From Mustelus asterias (Eukaryota), in NCBI RefSeq assembly GCF_964213995.1, contig NW_027591989.1, forward strand, positions 31,688 to 64,000: a DNA stretch of 32,313 bases. The letters are read 5' to 3'. Below are positions 1,612 through 8,363 of this stretch, piece after piece. A model generated the notes under the pieces. The model was given only the letters and a program-made list of their open reading frames with translations, made no database searches and had not been told where the DNA came from. The stretch's first letter is position 1; every line of letters starts with the position of its first letter. The translations under genes were made by a program, and so were the position numbers.

Positions 1612-1804
1612 ATCTTAGAAATCTTAGAAACTCTACAGCACAGAAAGAGGCCATTCGGCCCATCGAGTCTGCACTGACCACAATCCCACCCAGGCCCTAC
1701 CCCCATATCCCTACATATTTTGCCCGCTAATCCCTCTAATCTACGCATCCCGGGACACTAAGGGGCAATTTTAACCTGGCCAATCAACCTAACCCGCACA
1801 TCTT
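1612..1804 (-). mobile_element. 5'-truncated shark SINE (HE1-like, CR1-derived tail)
   Basis: Nearly identical to the SINE at 3593-3892. The minus strand has the tail gatgggccgaatggcctctttctgtgctgt followed by a short terminal repeat. Confidence 0.8.
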
Positions 1805-1984
1805 CTTATGTTCTCTGTTCACTTTTTTTCCATGTTATTGTCTGGAGTTGTGGATAGTAATGGCTGAGGCTCCAATAAATACCCTCAGCTATCAGGTACT
1901 GGCTTTCGAATTGAAGCCGATGTTTCTGCCTCAGGGGCACAGACGCGATCCACTGTGACACAGGAGTTCATCTCTTAATATCAA

Positions 1985-2472
1985 AGGAGGTAGAACAGAG
2001 ACCGAGCTGAGGTGCTCAACATCATGTGGTTTTGTTAAAGTAAATCGCATGTCACAGTTTCCGCCGGCAGAACTTTGGAAAAGACAAGCGTCTACTTTAG
2101 GAGGTGAGAGTGCAATGGAAAGATGAGATTCATTGATTACTCTGCGATTTGTTAAACTTGGAAGATGGTCATCGGATCCCGACAGTGCAAAAGGAGGCCA
2201 TTCGGCCCATCAAGACTGCACCGACTCTTATCTAGGCCCTATCCCTGCGGTGTCGAAAGAGATGGCGGAAGAAGAGATAACAGTAAGTTTCAGAAGGGAA
2301 TGGGAGATAAGTTGAAAGCAGAAAAGTGCAGTCACTGTGAGAGATGCGGGGTTTGAAAGCTGAATTGAAGAATTCTGTAATTCTGAATTCTCCACGTCAA
2401 TTCTGAATTCTGTCAGGCAAAGATACCATGGGCCGAGTGGCCTCATCTCCTGCATTGATACGCTATGTTTCT
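1985..2472 (+). mobile_element. Highly decayed LINE 3' remnant, with a short antisense SINE/LINE tail at ~2180-2245
   Basis: Ends in a CR1/SINE-like tail (atgggccgagtggcctcatctcctg...ctatgtttcta) and contains the antisense motif aggccattcggcccatc. Boundaries are approximate. Confidence 0.35.
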
Positions 2473-2585
2473 ATTTTGTTCATGTCCCTGGCCCCGTTAT
2501 GCTCCTCCCTCTCTATTTCTTCTCAGTCACTTGGACAGTGAGCAGGTGCAGAATGGTGACAGATTCCGGAGATGGAAGTCTCGCT

Positions 2586-2745
2586 ATTTCCGTTCCGGGT
2601 GCAGCTGAATCTGCCGCACACTTCACTCAATATTTTGTCTACTGCATCCCCGCCCACGACTTCCGTTTTCTGCTCTCACTCTGAACCTGTTGTGTGATTG
2701 GACGGATTGCTGCCGCTGCTCCATTCCTCTCATTGGTTGGATCAG
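2586..2745 (+). promoter_or_regulatory. V1 promoter (ETS-like sites, GC box, two inverted CCAAT boxes)
   Basis: atttccg 2586-2592, ccccgccc 2648-2655, cttccg 2660-2665, ATTGG 2697-2701 and 2732-2736. The ETS-like and CCAAT motifs are retained upstream of V3. Confidence 0.5.
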
Positions 2746-2820
2746 CAGTGCAGTGGAACAGTGTCTTTCTGTCTCTGACAGGATTTCACTCATTGCAGAG
2801 TTACAGACTCAGGAAGCATC

Positions 2821-3318
2821 ATGGTGAACTATCTCACTCCGATCCTCATCATTCTCTCACTTCTCAGTAAGTATTTTCTTCCCAGTAAAACTACAAGCTC
2901 CTCCTGACTGCTGTAACCCAGATATTCTTGTTGATAAAACAATAGTGATGATGATAATTGTATCGTTTAATCTGACGCTAACTCTGATTGTCATATTGCT
3001 GTTGTTTCTGTTAGAATGGAGTCACCAAGACGAAGTGGAACAATTGGATCCTGTAATAAAGGTTAAAGAGGAAAATGATGTCACACTAACCTGCACTTTG
3101 AAAACAAGCGATTCCAGCCCTTATGTGTACTGGTACAGTCAGCAGCCCGGGAAAGCTCCAGTGTACATGTTTCAGCTTATTGGAGAGATTGTGCAAAAGA
3201 ATCCCGACCTCAATGATCGGTTTTCTTCCAAATTTGATAAAAAGAACAAGACTAGCGAGCTGACGATCAGTAACACACTGATCTCTGACAGCGCCGTGTA
3301 CTTCTGTGCCATGGAGCC
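2821..3318 (+). CDS. TCR alpha/delta-type V gene segment V1 (leader exon 2821-2866, intron 2867-3014, V exon 3015-3318)
   Basis: Leader MVNYLTPILIILSLL with a phase-1 GTAAGT donor and ttAG acceptor splices in frame to KWSHQDEVEQ...VTLTC...VYWYSQQPGKAP...DRFS...LTISNTLISDSAVYFCAMEP. Canonical C23/W41/C104 are present and an RSS follows. Confidence 0.92.
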
Positions 3319-3358
3319 CACACTGCTGCAGAGATATAGCGATTGCCGTGCAAAAACC
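3319..3358 (+). promoter_or_regulatory. Recombination signal sequence of V1 (23-type, 24-nt spacer)
   Basis: CACACTG (3319-3325), 24-nt spacer, GCAAAAACC (3350-3358). Confidence 0.85.
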
Positions 3359-3592
3359 CCACACTGGCAGTTCCAGTTAGTGCCCAGCAGGGTGCGCGCG
3401 CACACACGCGGGTAATTCAGTTTCCACAGAGAGAGTGACAGAGATTCTTAACATTGCAACAAAAGACAACACTCAAAAACAGCAACTGGTGTGGTCCAGT
3501 TGCAATTACATTAGTTAATGGTCGGAACTTACATTTGCAATATCGATCTGAGATACTGCAACACCTTTTTTTTTCGTTTTCGATGCCTTTCT

Positions 3593-3892
3593 CATAGAAA
3601 TCATAGAAACCGTACAATACAGAAAGAGGCCATTCGGCCCATCTAGTCTGCACCGACCACAATCCCACCCAGGCCCTACCCCCAGATTCCTACATATTTT
3701 ACCCGCTAATCCCTCTAATCTACACATCCCAGGACACTAAGGGGCAATTTTAGCATGGCCAATCAACCTAACCCGCACATCTTTGGACTGTGGGAGGAAA
3801 CCGGAGCACCCAGAGGAAACCCACGCAGACACGAGGAGAATGTGCAAACTCTACACAGACAGTGACCCAAGCCGGGAATCGAACCCAGGTCC
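3593..3892 (-). mobile_element. Shark tRNA-derived SINE (HE1-like), 5'-truncated
   Basis: Pol III B box GGTTCGATTCC on the minus strand (3875-3885) and a CR1-like tail ending in ttctatgatttctatg. Absent from the matching position in the right arm. Confidence 0.85.
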
Positions 3893-4304
3893 AAACATCA
3901 CTGATGAGGATTTCACTTTGTACTGAATCACTTACTAATCCGATACTCCTGGTGCAAGAATGCTGGTCCGCAGTGTGGAATGGACATTCAGCTGCCTCTC
4001 ATATAGAGAGGCAAAGTTACAGAATTTCCAATTTGACATTGTTATTGAGTTGAGCTCCTTGCAGATAAATCCTAGCGGTCACCACACTGCCTATGGTAGC
4101 CCCACCCACAGTTTTCCTGTGTTGTTCGCACTCTGACCCGTCTCTCCTTTGCTGTTTTCTTGGATATTTCATTGGAGATATTGATCTTTGTTGCTTTTCC
4201 CTGTTTGGCACTGATTGGATCAGCAGTCCAATGGGGAGGCAAGCTATATTTCCACTCTGAAAGAGGATTTGACAGACTGCAAAATTACAAATTGAGAGAA
4301 CATC

Positions 4305-4536
4305 ATATGGAAATATCTCAGACCATTCATTGTTCTGTCACTTCTTATCAGGTAGATGTTTTGACTAAAAAATCATCCTCCCCCGCGCTATAGCTGATAT
4401 CCCAAACATGATTAATAACAAACTGCTTGTTATGTTGCTGTGAGGATGGATATTGTCATTCTCCATGTCAGAACAGAGCCATCAGGACTCAGGGGACCGG
4501 TCGGTTCCTGAAATGACGGTTGAAGGGGAAAGTAAT
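4305..4536 (+). pseudogene. Truncated TCR V pseudogene of the V1/V3 family (leader, intron and start of V exon)
   Basis: 46-nt leader starting ATA instead of ATG (IWKYLRPFIVLSLLI) with a shifted donor. Acceptor AG at 4470-4471, then QSHQDSGDRSVPEMTVEGESN, which aligns with V1 WSHQDEVEQLDPVIKVKEEND. Upstream 4100-4300 resembles the V1 promoter. No Cys23 and no RSS. Confidence 0.75.
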
Positions 4537-4584
4537 CCCCTGTCGTGGGATGATCAACTTTACTTTGTTCCTTTCGTCCCTCCG

Positions 4585-4722
4585 CCAATAGGATGAATTG
4601 CAGATAAAGGAGCTGTGAGGTCATTGGTTGAACTGAAGAACATAGGAGATTGAATCCGATTGGATGTCATCTGATGACGTTTTCAACAGTAAACCAATCA
4701 ACAGGGAGCCGGATATGACTCA
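4585..4722 (+). promoter_or_regulatory. V2 promoter (CCAAT boxes, CRE-like and AP-1 motifs)
   Basis: ATTGG 4659-4663, TGACGT 4675-4680, CCAAT 4694-4698 and TGACTCA 4716-4722, lying 80-140 bp upstream of the V2 ATG. CRE-like motifs are known from TCR V promoters. Confidence 0.5.
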
Positions 4723-4798
4723 CCCTTTTCCCAACTCTTGACTGACACAAATTCAGGTTCAACCCGTTCTGGTCAAATTCACCGCGAGCTCTGCAATC

Positions 4799-5673
4799 AT
4801 GTGTCTTGTTACTTTGTATTTATTCCTCACAGCGGCAGCTCTGTTAATCGGTAAGTTCACAAGTTGCTCACTCTGTGTTACACACCATTACCACACACTA
4901 TATTCTGTCGGGCTGTTTGCTCAATGCAAGGGTGTTGATCAGGGAATGGATTGATCACAACATCGAAAAGTTATTTCGATCTCTCTGGTCTCAACACTGA
5001 ACACTGTTGGGATTGGGCACATTTCCCCCAGGGATTGATAGAGAATGAGTTGGGCTCAGATTCCAGCTCCTCTGATACCAGTGAATCACTTTGGCAAACA
5101 TCACATTTCAAACAGACCGTGAGCAGTTTCCAGTTACAGGGACTGAAGACGAGGAACTGATCTCGTTAGAAAGAAGAGAATGTTTATGGTGGAAGTTTTA
5201 TTTAATCGCCACAAACGTCTTCCCAATCCAGTCACTGAACTGTGAAAAATATGTTTCTGTTTTGCTCTCTGATTTCTCTCTGAGATTATTTTTGCCGATA
5301 ACGGGCAAATTCTGGGAAAACTGAGTGAAATTGCAATGTTTAATTTAATATTTCTTTGGATTCTTACAGGACATTCCCGAGGAGATTCTGTTTCACAGAC
5401 AGCGGCTGCAGTCACTGTCACTGAAGGAGATGATGTTCGGTTGCTCTGTAATTACACAACTACAAGCAACAGCTTTGATCTTTTCTGGTACCGTCAGTAT
5501 ACCAGCGGATCCATGGTGTATCTCCTGCAGACAAATAAATACTCCGGAAACACAGGGAGATCCAAAGGGGACCGTTTTTCAGTAGAACTCAATGATTCAA
5601 CCCGCACAGTCCCTCTGAATGTGTCTAAAACAGAGCTGGCAGACTCCGGGGTGTATTACTGCGCACTGAGACC
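4799..5673 (+). CDS. TCR alpha/delta-type V gene segment V2 (leader exon 4799-4850, intron 4851-5369, V exon 5370-5673)
   Basis: Leader MCLVTLYLFLTAAALLI with a phase-1 GTAAGT donor and ttacAG acceptor. In-frame GHSRGDSVSQT...VRLLCNY...LFWYRQY...DRFS...LADSGVYYCALRP, with a typical TRAV/TRDV 3' end. Confidence 0.93.
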
Positions 5674-5712
5674 CACAGAGACACAGAGCTGGGCTGAACC
5701 TGTACAAAAACT
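5674..5712 (+). promoter_or_regulatory. 23-RSS of V2
   Basis: CACAGAG (5674-5680), 23-nt spacer, ACAAAAACT (5704-5712). Confidence 0.92.
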
Positions 5713-5785
5713 GTCAGAGCCTCACTCATCCTCTTGGCGGAGAGACGAAAGCAACAAAGTGAATTTGGTCATCCCACTACAGGGG

Positions 5786-6017
5786 ATTACTTTCCTCTTC
5801 AGCCGTCATTTCAGACAACGACCGGTCCCCTGAGTCTTGGTGGCTCTGTTTCGACATGGAGAACGACAATATTCATTCTTACAGCAACATAACAAGCAGT
5901 TTGTTATCAATCATGTTTGGGGTAGCAGCTATGATGCGGGGGAGGATGAATGTTGAGTTGAAACATCTACTTCATAAGAGGTGATGGAATAATGAATGGT
6001 CTGATATATTTCCATTT
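5786..6017 (-). pseudogene. Truncated TCR V pseudogene, inverted copy of 4305-4536
   Basis: The leader starts AAA instead of ATG (KWKYIRPFIIPSPLM) and the acceptor AG is changed to GA. The exon remnant reads QSHQDSGDRSLSEMTAEEESN. Confidence 0.72.
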
Positions 6018-6642
6018 GATGTTCCCTCACTTTTTAATTTGTAGTCTGTGAAATCCTCTTTCAGACATGGTGATATATCTTACCTCCCCATTCAACTACT
6101 GATCCAATCAGTGCCAAACAGGGAAAAGCGGCAAAGATCAATATCCCCAATAAAATCTCTAATAAAACAGCAGAGGTGAGACGGGTCAGAGTGAGAACAG
6201 CACAGGAAAGCTGTGCGTGGGGCGACCACACGCAGTGAAGTGACAGCTAGGATTTATCTGTAAGGATTTCATCTCAATAACAATGTCTCATTAGAAATTC
6301 TATAAATTTGCTTCTCTGTAAGAGCGGCAGCTGAATGTCCATTCCATACTGCGTCCGAGCAGCCTCGCACTAGGAGTGCCAGGGTTAGTAAATGATTCAA
6401 TACAAAGCGAAATCTTCATCAGTGAGGAGGATGGAAAGTGGGACTGAATCGCTGAGCAGACGAATTGGGGAGGTTCCGAATGGATGTACAAGGTGTCAGA
6501 AAAAGCTTTAAATTCTTACGTTAAAGACTAGAAAAGTGAAATGTGCACAACTCCCATAAATCAGTAAATACAAGAACGTGTTTGGAATAAATAGGCTGGG
6601 AAAGGTATCGAAAGCCAAAAAAAATGTGTCAATGTATCTCAT

Positions 6643-6693
6643 ATCGATCTGTCAAATCGATCTGTCAAATCGATCTGTCAAACGATCTGTCAA
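6643..6693. repeat. 4 x 13-bp tandem repeat at the LINE 5' junction
   Basis: atcgatctgtcaa three times, then acgatctgtcaa, directly abutting the CR1 insertion. Confidence 0.9.
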
Positions 6694-7234
6694 ATGAGAC
6701 CACATTTGGAATATTGTGTGCAGTTCTGGTCACCTCACTATAAGAAGGATATGGAAGCGCTGGAAAGAGTGCAGAGGAGATTTACCAGGATGCTGCCTGG
6801 TTTGGAGGGTGGGTCTTATGAGGAAAGGTTGAGGGAGCTAGGGCTGTTCTCTCTGGAGCGGAGGAGGCTGAGGGGAGACTTAATAGAGGTTTATAAAATG
6901 ATGAAGGGGATAGATAGAGTGAACGTTCAAAGACTATTTCCTCGGGTGGATGGAGCTATTACAAGGGGGCATAACTATAGGGTTCGTGGTGGGAGATATA
7001 GGAAGGATATCAGAGGTAGGTTCTTTACGCAGAGAGTGGTTGGGGTGTGGAATGGACTGCCTGCAGTGATAGTGGAGTCAGACACTTTAAGAACATTTAA
7101 GCGGTTATTGGATAGGCACATGGAGCACACCAGGATGATAGGGAGTGGGATAGCTTGATCTTGGTTTCAGATAAAGCTCGGCACAACATCGTGGGCCGAA
7201 GGGACTGTTCTGTGCTGTACTGTTCTATGTTCTA
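6694..7234 (+). mobile_element. Young 5'-truncated CR1 LINE (ORF2 C-terminus and 3' UTR)
   Basis: Uninterrupted 154-aa frame RPHLEYCVQFWSPHYKKD...LFSLERRRLRGDLIEVYK...TRGH...FFTQRVV...WNGLP and a (tgttcta)2 tail. TGTCAA on both sides (6688-6693 and 7235-7240). Confidence 0.93.
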
Positions 7235-7437
7235 TGTCAATCTTATTTCAATTGCAAATGTAAGTTACGATCATTAGCAAATGTAAATGTGCAACTGAAC
7301 CACACCAGTTTCTGTTTTTGAGTGTTGTGTTTTGCTGCAATGTGAACAATCTTCCTGTCACTCTCTCTGTGGAAACTGAATTACCCGCGTGTGTGCGCGC
7401 GCACCCTACTGGGCACTGACTGGAACTGCCTGTGTGG

Positions 7438-7477
7438 GGTTTTTGTACGGGATTCGCTATATCTCTGCAGCAGTGTG
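7438..7477 (-). promoter_or_regulatory. Recombination signal sequence of V3 (23-type, 24-nt spacer)
   Basis: Minus strand: CACACTG (7477-7471), 24-nt spacer, perfect ACAAAAACC (7446-7438). Confidence 0.88.
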
Positions 7478-7982
7478 GGCTTCATAGCACAGAAATAAAC
7501 GGCGCTGTCAGAGATCAGTGTGTTACTGATCGTCAGCTCGCTAGTCTTGTTCTTTTTATCAAATATAGAAGAAAACCGATCATTGAGGTCGGTATTCCTT
7601 TGCACATTCTCTCCAACAAGCTGAAACATGTCCACTGGAGCTTTCCCGGGCTGCTGACTGTACCAGTACACATTAGGGCTGGAATCGCTTGTTTCCAAGG
7701 AGCAGGTCAGTGTGACATTACTTTCCTCTTTAACCGATATTTCAGAATCCTGTTGTTCCACTTTGTCTTGCTGGCTCCATTCTAACGGAAGTAACAGCAA
7801 TAATGACAATTAGAGTCAGCCTCAGATTAAACGATGCAATTATCATCAACATCGTCACTGTTGTTTTAATAACAATAACATCTGGGTTACAGCAGTCAGG
7901 AGCAGAATGGAGTTTTATTGGGAAGGAAATACTTACTGAGAAGTGAGATAATGATGAGGATCGGAAAGAGCTGGATCCCCAT
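7478..7982 (-). CDS. TCR alpha/delta-type V gene segment V3, inverted paralog of V1 (leader 7982-7937, intron 7936-7782, V exon 7781-7478)
   Basis: Leader MGIQLFPILIIISLL with GTAAGT donor. In-frame KWSQQDKVEQ...VTLTC...VYWYSQQPGKAP...DSAVYFCAMKP. 27 differences from V1 in 304 nt by hand count. Confidence 0.92.
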
Positions 7983-8069
7983 GATCCTTCCTGAGTCTGT
8001 AACTCTGTAGTGAGAGAAATCCTCAGTCAGAAACAGAAGTAAAGATCCCCGTCCCACTGCACTCCTGAT

Positions 8070-8231
8070 CCAATGAGAGGAATGGAGCAGTGGCAGCAAT
8101 CTGTCCAATCGGGTCGGAGTGAGAGCAGCAAACGGAAGCTGTGGGCAGGGTTACCACAGGCTCAATATTGAGTGGGGTTTGCCGTGACTCTCAGCTGCAC
8201 TGGATGCTGTGGGAGCGGAAATAGCGGAAAT
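8070..8231 (-). promoter_or_regulatory. V3 promoter
   Basis: CCAAT at 8070-8074 and 8105-8109, cggaag 8133-8138, and a duplicated cggaaat (8216-8222, 8225-8231). These mirror the V1 promoter motifs. Confidence 0.5.
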
Positions 8232-8363
8232 AGCGACGCTTGAATCTACAGAAGTCTCTGATCATCCTGCACCTGCTCACTGTTCAAGTGTCTAAAATTA
8301 AATGTTTATGGCTGGGACATGAAGCATCGACAATCATTGAATCGGTGAGCATCGAATGAGGCC

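Follow-up and report, generated by a model that had tools for sequence, protein, structure and literature searches.

The palindromic TCR V cassette of Mustelus asterias is very probably a pseudo-palindrome, formed when two long-diverged paralogous V blocks were joined head-on at a single young 3-nt junction, likely by repair or deletion. Reverse-complement homology was confirmed by alignment in the window, i.e., the 32,313-nt stretch of DNA analyzed here. Positions 2525–3541 match 8293–7251 with 84.4% identity, and the inner arm pair, 3898–4596 and 6425–5726, matches with 85.4% identity (E about 0 in both cases); a weak tail of homology extends out to 2479 and 8323. As described in the initial annotation, each arm carries an intact V gene with its RSS and a truncated pseudo-V. 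The inner arm ends are exact and symmetrical, at positions 4596 and 5726, leaving a loop of 1,129 bp (4597–5725). The palindrome is not near-perfect: the arms are about 15% diverged with gaps counted, their longest perfect run is 66 bp (31 bp within the inner arms), and each is broken by a different repeat insertion, at 3590–3897 on the left and at about 6430–7250 on the right.

Three intact V genes are present, each with a leader exon, a GT-AG intron, and an open V exon containing the conserved Cys, Trp and YxC residues. V1 (2821–3358, forward strand; leader 2821–2866, V exon 3015–3318) and V3 (7438–7982, reverse strand; leader 7982–7937, V exon 7781–7478) are TCR alpha/delta-type V genes, and their RSSs (3319–3358 and 7477–7438, respectively) have a 24-bp spacer, which is a family-wide trait. 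V2 (4799–5712, forward strand; leader 4799–4850, V exon 5370–5673) is of the TCR alpha type and has an RSS with a 23-bp spacer at 5674–5712. A search of the PDB with V2 gave no match at E 1e-17; when it was repeated at E 1e-11, the top four hits were all TCR alpha chains. Similarity hits of V1 were a mixture of antibody chains, TCR alpha and V-delta1. The left-arm pseudo-V (4307–4536, forward strand) comprises the leader, the intron and the first ~70 bp of the V exon and lacks an RSS; its counterpart in the right arm (5786–6015, reverse strand) has lost the splice acceptor AG. V similarity of the left pseudo-V ends at about 4536, 60 bp short of the arm end, and paralogous blocks carry the same truncated form, so the truncation was not caused by the junction event. 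A motif scan of the window revealed no J motif, and no C was found in the window either; a search with the constant-region profile PF09291 gave no match, but neither did its control.

The left arm and the loop are one continuous block of a V subfamily which we term A, comprising V1, the pseudo-V and V2. The left arm (2525–4596, forward strand) is the 5' part of this block, with the V1 promoter region, V1, a spacer and the pseudo-V; it shares 96–99% identity with A paralogs and 84–85% with the right arm. The loop (4597–5725, forward strand) is its 3' part, made up of the V2 upstream region, V2, the RSS and 13 bp, with 94–98% identity to eight A paralogs. In the A paralogs, sequence resembling the left arm runs without a break through position 4596 into V2 and ends only at 5728, hence 4596 is no junction; intact copies of the block, up to 98% identical, also occur elsewhere in the genome. 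The view of the loop as exactly one V gene stands as regards its bounds, but its sequence is not unique to this site and was not inserted here. It does contain the V2 leader, V exon and RSS; however, a CCAAT box and an adjacent GC-rich stretch lie at about 4580–4590, inside the left arm, and judging from such motifs the promoter region of V2 may extend beyond the loop. The repeat at 3590–3897, putatively SINE-like, is common to the A paralogs and therefore predates the junction.

The right arm and its flank (5726–8367, reverse strand) represent the inverted 5' part of a block of another subfamily, B, with V3, a spacer and a pseudo-V; the cut lies about 200 bp upstream of the V2-like gene belonging to this block. 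B copies with 96–99% identity to the right arm continue into such a gene: all five B paralogs displayed extend past the position equivalent to 5726 into a V2-type promoter, and V2-like genes were found there. Within B, the right arm is mosaic, combining sequence of two subgroups. An interspersed repeat fragment at 6657–7234, putatively LINE/CR1-like, is 98% identical to copies in four B paralogs (two on C71, one each on C353 and C210) and missing from four others; it was considered as a private insertion that might date the junction, and rejected because of these four carriers.

Compared with junction-free copies, the loop shows 97.6–98.0% and the start of the right arm 98–99% identity, whereas the arms share only 85–86% with each other, indicating that they diverged before they were joined. 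Identity between the arms (0.890) lies within the values obtained for A x B pairs that are unlinked (median 0.878, range 0.864–0.907, 207 pairs), and the same holds for a second arm segment, with 0.858 as compared to 0.860 in 152 unlinked pairs. Arm identity thus does not exceed that of unlinked paralogs, while palindromes maintained by conversion are typically >99% identical. Long perfect runs were rejected as proof of conversion, since 8 of the 207 unlinked pairs also reach 66 bp.

The only new join within the palindrome is at 5726–5728 (J1), where the A block meets the inverted B block. The triplet TCA is present in both parent flanks, without long homology, as in microhomology junctions; end-joining and fork-stalling template switches typically leave microhomologies of 2–5 nt (PMC2583991). 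All 21 V2-type paralogous loci examined run past the position of 5728 with a common, different flank, and the flank of the window beyond 5728 was found in one further contig only, C1054. J1 is thus seen in two assembled contigs of one genome. Over 7.85 kb, C1054 differs from the window by two substitutions, one 1-bp and one 9-bp indel. It lacks the second junction of the window, J2 (8364–8367), at which the V block is joined with a 4-nt microhomology (ATTC) to a high-copy, satellite-bearing unit and which occurs in the contig of the window only; C1054 has another join 120 bp past the B flank. Similar joins nearby are J2, a join in C1054 at L001:2037, and one in L065, where a microsatellite interrupts a V. 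The left break of J1 lies 13–16 bp behind the V2 nonamer, in a spacer of about 2.9 kb, a smaller distance than would be expected for most random breaks, although this proximity was judged post hoc. That the right arm begins 13 bp past the nonamer had been recorded before and is correct, the nonamer ending at 5712 and the arm starting at 5726. Parts of 4400–6400 are contained in 22 sequencing runs, the best shares being 0.53–0.60 in four runs of one study; such shares cannot separate the junction from its paralogs. A literature search, mostly outside subscription journals, retrieved no paper on such a junction in sharks.

Given the homology of A and B, arms and a loop result whenever the end of an A block is joined head-on to the front of a B block; the loop then corresponds to the portion of A which is missing from the truncated B, and the positions of the two breaks make this portion V2. 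A layout from which J1 might derive exists in C315, where 396447–400542 matches window positions 1625–5728 with 97.2% identity and 420643–422691 matches 5726–8367 with 97.3% if the insertion is left aside, both matches being on one strand. The A and B blocks of C315 face each other at a distance of 20.1 kb, which makes deletion the likeliest origin. Germline end-joining or template switching would likely have made J1, probably deleting the DNA between facing blocks; a simple deletion from a C315-like layout would have removed 20.1 kb with seven V-like segments. C315 has a base near the junction that is missing from the other B copies shown. It is the nearest relative neither of the loop (95.5%, as compared to 98.0% for C391) nor of the start of the right arm (98.1%, as compared to 98.9% for C178), and accordingly shows that the layout exists, but not parentage.

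A variant of this explanation has the same paralogs joined via an inversion breakpoint or a template switch between non-adjacent copies. The location of the closest relatives of the two sides on separate contigs, C391 and C178, points in this direction, as do the mosaic structure of the right arm and the further join in C1054, which suggests complex events. On the other hand, a search of the fragmented assembly with one exact pattern did not find the reciprocal inversion junction, and C315 provides the facing layout; we consider this route possible but less likely.

The initial annotation proposed that the arms let the V2 cassette flip by homologous recombination. The arms are close, with a loop of only 1.1 kb, and a predicted fold of 4400–5899 pairs the inner arms as expected, although no shuffle control was available at that length; human alpha-globin repeats 5 kb apart are reported to recombine via matches of <50 bp (PMC2583991). 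The usual recombination substrates, however, have >95% identity, and human meiosis uses perfect segments of 300–500 bp (PMC2583991), as compared to 85% identity and the 66-bp longest run of the shark arms. Both junction copies, from one genome, show the same orientation, none of 164 diagnostic sites is reciprocally swapped between the arms, and within each arm the subfamily does not change between the distal and the proximal part. Flipping would also add little, with eight copies at least 94% identical to the loop and many more V2 relatives on both strands. Inversion of V2 frequent enough to matter is therefore very unlikely, and our literature search, with the scope given above, found no paper on flipping V cassettes in sharks.

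A germline RAG cut near the V2 RSS might be suspected from the position of the break close behind the nonamer and from CAC triplets adjoining the break on both parent sides. RAG cleaves at the coding edge of the heptamer, but this edge lies 52 bp upstream of the break, and the V2 coding end and RSS are intact. By eye, no usable nonamer was seen 12 or 23 bp after either CAC, and the join has microhomology but no extra bases, so that we regard a RAG origin as highly improbable. An assembly chimera might be feared in so repetitive a locus, given an unplaced 66-kb contig among satellites and many near-identical contigs. It is equally improbable, since C1054 carries the junction with its own substitutions and indels and without J2, and the arms contain private alleles absent from all other copies. 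Finally, a local fold-back duplication of the left arm around V2, with divergence in place, would account for the sharp, symmetrical inner arm ends, but the inverted duplication postulated at the outset is hardly credible for arms that are 96–99% identical to their own unlinked copies and only 85–89% to each other, and that fall into separate, fully supported clades, each with its own subfamily, which split long before the junction.

Dozens of unlinked copies serve as controls and make exchange between the subfamilies testable. Private alleles matching the other subfamily numbered 4 of 8, whereas the controls gave 13 of 96 (p = 0.023). Candidate tracts lie at 3283–3297, 3102–3121, 3389–3440 and 4426. 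In FR3 of V1, the probable conversion tract spans 3232–3297 (forward strand) at its widest extent, with B-type alleles at 3283, 3286 and 3297; those at 3283 and 3286, both synonymous, differ from 26 of 26 A copies and match 9 of 9 B copies. Two candidates were discarded: sites 2593 and 2597 reflect a misalignment caused by the 9-bp duplication 8223–8231, C1054 having the B alleles there, and L065, an apparent A copy with B alleles, has its V exon cut by a microsatellite just before the sites in question. Taken from allele patterns, a few short conversion-like patches were probably copied between the A and B families, and in the head-on join scenario such patches would have been transferred after or around the join. 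The proposal that the arms template conversion between V1 and V3 thus gains modest support for exchange of V1-type and V3-type sequence via short tracts, while V1 or V3 as donor is unproven.

Candidate motifs at 3384–3397 (forward strand, 25 bp behind the V1 nonamer) and at 7399–7412 (reverse strand, behind the V3 nonamer) face each other 4.0 kb apart and are putatively CTCF-like. We speculate, with considerable reserve, that the junction brought rarely exchanging V subfamilies within 4 kb in the form of inverted arms whose CTCF-like sites face each other, and that germline patch swaps have occurred in both directions since (V1 FR3, V3 CDR1). If so, head-on joins would be a way for shark V arrays to shuffle CDR sequence between subfamilies; the weak sign of exchange between subfamilies of 85–89% identity is worth following up.

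V genes in opposite orientation rearrange by deletion or by inversion, respectively. From RSS logic it follows that V1 and V2 use the opposite joining mode to V3, provided that J segments lie in cis. Throughout this V array, genes of opposite orientation are the normal state, with strands alternating every few kb. Opposite joining modes have already been published for fish TRA/TRD (PMC8559430): in Atlantic salmon, too, both strands carry TRAV genes, segments retained by inversion stay available for secondary rearrangement, and V orientation is without effect on usage. The salmon genes form two orientation blocks, in contrast to the frequent strand changes of the shark array (PMC8559430). In T cells, V1, V2 and V3 would behave as ordinary V segments, and no particular function is predicted for the arms.

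Several known systems share features with the shark locus. Bovine TRA/TRD likewise expanded its V genes by copying multi-gene blocks, pseudogenes included (PMC4289303), but in the shark the blocks occur in either orientation and alternate with a high-copy satellite unit, and a palindrome is mimicked by one head-on join. Non-recurrent rearrangements attributed to NHEJ/MMEJ or FoSTeS show the same combination of a 3-nt microhomology and a breakpoint without long homology (PMC2583991); those are human disease alleles, whereas J1 arose in the germline, within the V array of a shark. TCR alpha/delta-type V exons far from J-C were also described in the elasmobranch antigen receptor complex (PMC12227049), the accessible text of which is silent on orientation and on junctions. 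Palindromes of mammalian sex chromosomes share the inverted arms around a spacer and the signs of conversion, but their arms are >99% identical and far longer (PMC8981503), as opposed to the shark arms of 2 kb and 85% identity, which are not homogenised.

The head-on join of old paralogs is, as found, birth-and-death evolution of an ordinary kind, in a V array that has expanded greatly. A V2-like gene was lost from its block and three intact V genes remain; several further V segments were probably lost between the blocks. In arrays with blocks in both orientations, a single join gives a convincing gene-centred palindrome, which calls for caution in reading such structures.

The inverted arms, the three V exons with RSSs and the single V gene in the loop reported in the initial annotation were recovered by self-comparison of the first 9.5 kb of the window and by an RSS and motif scan. 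Inverted matches pair 2525–3541 with 8293–7251 (84.4%) and 3898–4596 with 6425–5726 (85.4%), each arm being interrupted by a distinct repeat insertion, and the loop occupies 4597–5725. The heptamers of V1 (left arm, + strand), V2 (loop, + strand) and V3 (right arm, – strand) are located at 3319, 5674 and 7477, with RSS spacers of 24, 23 and 24 bp, respectively; the scan detected no J motif in the window. All three genes have in-frame leaders with GT-AG introns. The four top PDB matches of V2 are TCR alpha chains, and those of V1 are mixed. Spacers of 24 bp, present in 43 of 140 RSSs in fetched loci, are a consistent trait of the V1/V3 family (3319–3358 and 7438–7477). Three CTCF-like motifs are predicted in the window (0.34 expected); those at 3384–3397 (+) and 7399–7412 (–) follow the nonamers of V1 and V3 at a distance of 25 bp and now face one another at 4.0 kb, and the scan of the window found none behind the RSS of V2. 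Upstream of the cassette are a 56-bp tandem repeat (327–826, 8.9 copies), which forms a multi-kb array on contig C391, and a 94-bp imperfect hairpin (962–1055, 89% self-complementary). The remainder of the window is mainly 69-bp and short-period satellite, plus LINE-like pieces.

The loop had been described as unique sequence between the arms. However, in paralogous loci left-arm homology passes 4596, enters V2 and ends at 5728, where a common flank absent from the window follows in 21 of 21 paralogs shown (a comparison that left out locus L013); in the anchored comparison at 5728, C1054 was the sole contig with the window's flank. Seven copies of the right-arm family, which has nine V3-type copies, match at 96–99% across the whole of 5726–6430, and all five displayed relatives run past 5726 to a V2-type promoter and then a V2-like gene. 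Since left-arm sequence runs on into V2, and the relatives of the right arm into a V2-like gene, the cassette consists of a complete A block (V1, pseudo-V, V2) joined to the inverted front part of a B block (V3, pseudo-V, V2-like gene). The sole junction of the loop is its 5726–5728 end, where TCA is common to both parents; 4596 is merely the mirror of the cut point of the B block. The junction pattern is present in two contigs, the window's own (C1957) and C1054, which are 99.85% identical across 7,853 bp and carry V2 in identical orientation; a 9-bp tandem duplication upstream of V3 (8223–8231) is absent from C1054. A second junction at 8364–8367, with 4-nt microhomology, leads to a high-copy unit with the 69-bp satellite, dispersed across the V-bearing contigs C391, C386, C387, C232 and C178; it is unique to the window's contig, and about 15 kb upstream of it are common to C1054 at >99.8%.

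An inverted duplication around V2, as first proposed, does not account for these identities. Junction-free copies on C391 match the loop at 97.6–98.0% and C178 matches the right-arm start at 98.9%, as against 85.8–89.0% in aligned columns between the arms, so that the A/B split is far older than the join. The join was probably made by simple deletion. On contig C315, an A block (396447–400542, 97.2%) and an inverted B block (420643–422691, 97.3%) are separated by 20.1 kb holding seven V-like segments, and loss of such an interval would yield the window's layout; since neither side has C315 as its closest relative, this contig can model the parental layout but is not itself the parent. An inversion breakpoint or a template switch is a less likely origin. 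Microhomologies of 2–5 nt are commonly seen where ends have been joined or replication has switched template (PMC2583991). The reciprocal junction of an inversion was not found when the genome's contigs were searched with one exact pattern. Joining by RAG is unlikely, since the coding end and RSS of V2 are intact and neither break has a usable cryptic RSS as judged by eye, although the left break, judged after the fact, lies unusually close to the V2 nonamer. Two facing A blocks about 20 kb apart occur on C391 (L003, G000:C391:6125–10209, and L002, 30410–32771; 96.5% over 3.2 kb).

Flipping of V2 by crossover between the arms is expected to leave A alleles distal and B alleles proximal on one side, and a double flip swapped tracts. 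The V arm was compared across 23 A and 9 B copies and the pseudo-V arm across 19 A and 8 B copies, sites at least 80% fixed in each subfamily being diagnostic. Of 164 such sites, 155 were in the expected state, four were B-type in both arms, four A-type in both (two of them an alignment artefact) and one other; none was swapped between the arms. No perfect arm-to-arm match exceeds 66 bp, and within the inner arms none exceeds 31 bp. Usual recombination substrates have >95% identity and perfect segments of 300–500 bp, but in close alpha-globin repeats matches of <50 bp are enough, at low rate (the relevant part of PMC2583991). With no swapped sites and V2 the same way round in both junction contigs, a fixed flip has not occurred and the cassette is not a switch; rare flips, somatic or germline, may exist beyond what the assembled contigs show. 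A true inverted duplication at L038–L040 (G000:C71:6527000–6556250), with arms of at least 10 kb, 98.8–99.3% identity, a spacer of about 8.4 kb and three V genes per arm, is much better suited than the arms around V2 to flipping and to conversion between arms. Arm-to-arm conversion is described for mammalian sex-chromosome palindromes (PMC8981503).

The suggested gene conversion between V1 and V3 held for short tracts at most. Arm identities are close to the medians of unlinked A × B pairs (V arm, 0.890 vs 0.878, 207 pairs; pseudo-V arm, 0.858 vs 0.860, 152 pairs), and the arms overall are not homogenised; the 66-bp perfect run, considered as a conversion sign, is equalled by 8 of the 207 pairs. 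V1, nested within the A clade, has B alleles at 3283 and 3286 (26 of 26 A copies differ, three of them fetched later than the other 23; 9 of 9 B copies match). The right arm, on the left-arm scale, is in the A state at 3110 (CDR1; 9/9 B copies differ) and 4426 (7/7 differ), and has at 3398/3400/3413 a full A haplotype found in no B copy. With near-identical copies left out together, private alleles matched the other subfamily in 4 of 8 cases in four focal arm segments, whereas the 47 control segments gave 13 of 96 (Fisher one-sided p=0.023). Several points weigh against this result: 3283 and 3286 represent a single event, the test was designed after the sites were seen, seven control V-arm alleles also cross-match, and at 3122 the right arm agrees with other A copies and not with V1. 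These sites suggest, weakly to moderately, that short exchanges between A and B occurred, with some 26 A and 9 B copies as potential donors. Exchange within a subfamily clearly exceeds that between subfamilies; the right arm tracks a C71-type B subgroup at about 6400–7234 and is C178-type elsewhere. At 3297 (FR3 of V1), 19 of 23 A copies have Gly, and V1, V3 and four A copies the usual Val of DSAVYFC.

By established RSS logic, V genes in opposite orientation rearrange by deletion versus inversion, an argument that requires J segments in cis. The TCR alpha/delta-type V field is very large, with strands mixed: a genome search gave at least 150 V2 relatives (150 of 150 scored, from 1,740 candidates) and at least 147 V3 relatives (147 of 150 scored), lower bounds in which many contigs may be haplotype copies. 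Besides many unplaced contigs, the field covers 4.7–19.4 Mb of C71 (20.4 Mb), where 25 V2-family matches, 13 on + and 12 on – among those listed, are spread. In 60 fetched loci with 140 V exons with RSSs, 57 of 100 neighbouring V pairs <6 kb apart are oppositely oriented, and both strands carry V exons on 20 of 24 contigs; the loci were picked around V1/V2/V3 relatives, so that neighbour pairs are not independent. At L065:2440–2540 (G000:C2521), a CA/CT microsatellite truncates a V1-type exon in FR3. Parts of published accounts describe scattered elasmobranch TCR alpha/delta V exons (PMC12227049), mixed-orientation TRAV genes in Atlantic salmon (PMC8559430), homology-unit duplication at bovine TRA/TRD (PMC4289303) and an incomplete nurse shark germline locus (PMC5931798); our literature search found no account of this junction. 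The structure is real, but it is the scar of an ordinary rearrangement in a V array built by block duplication.
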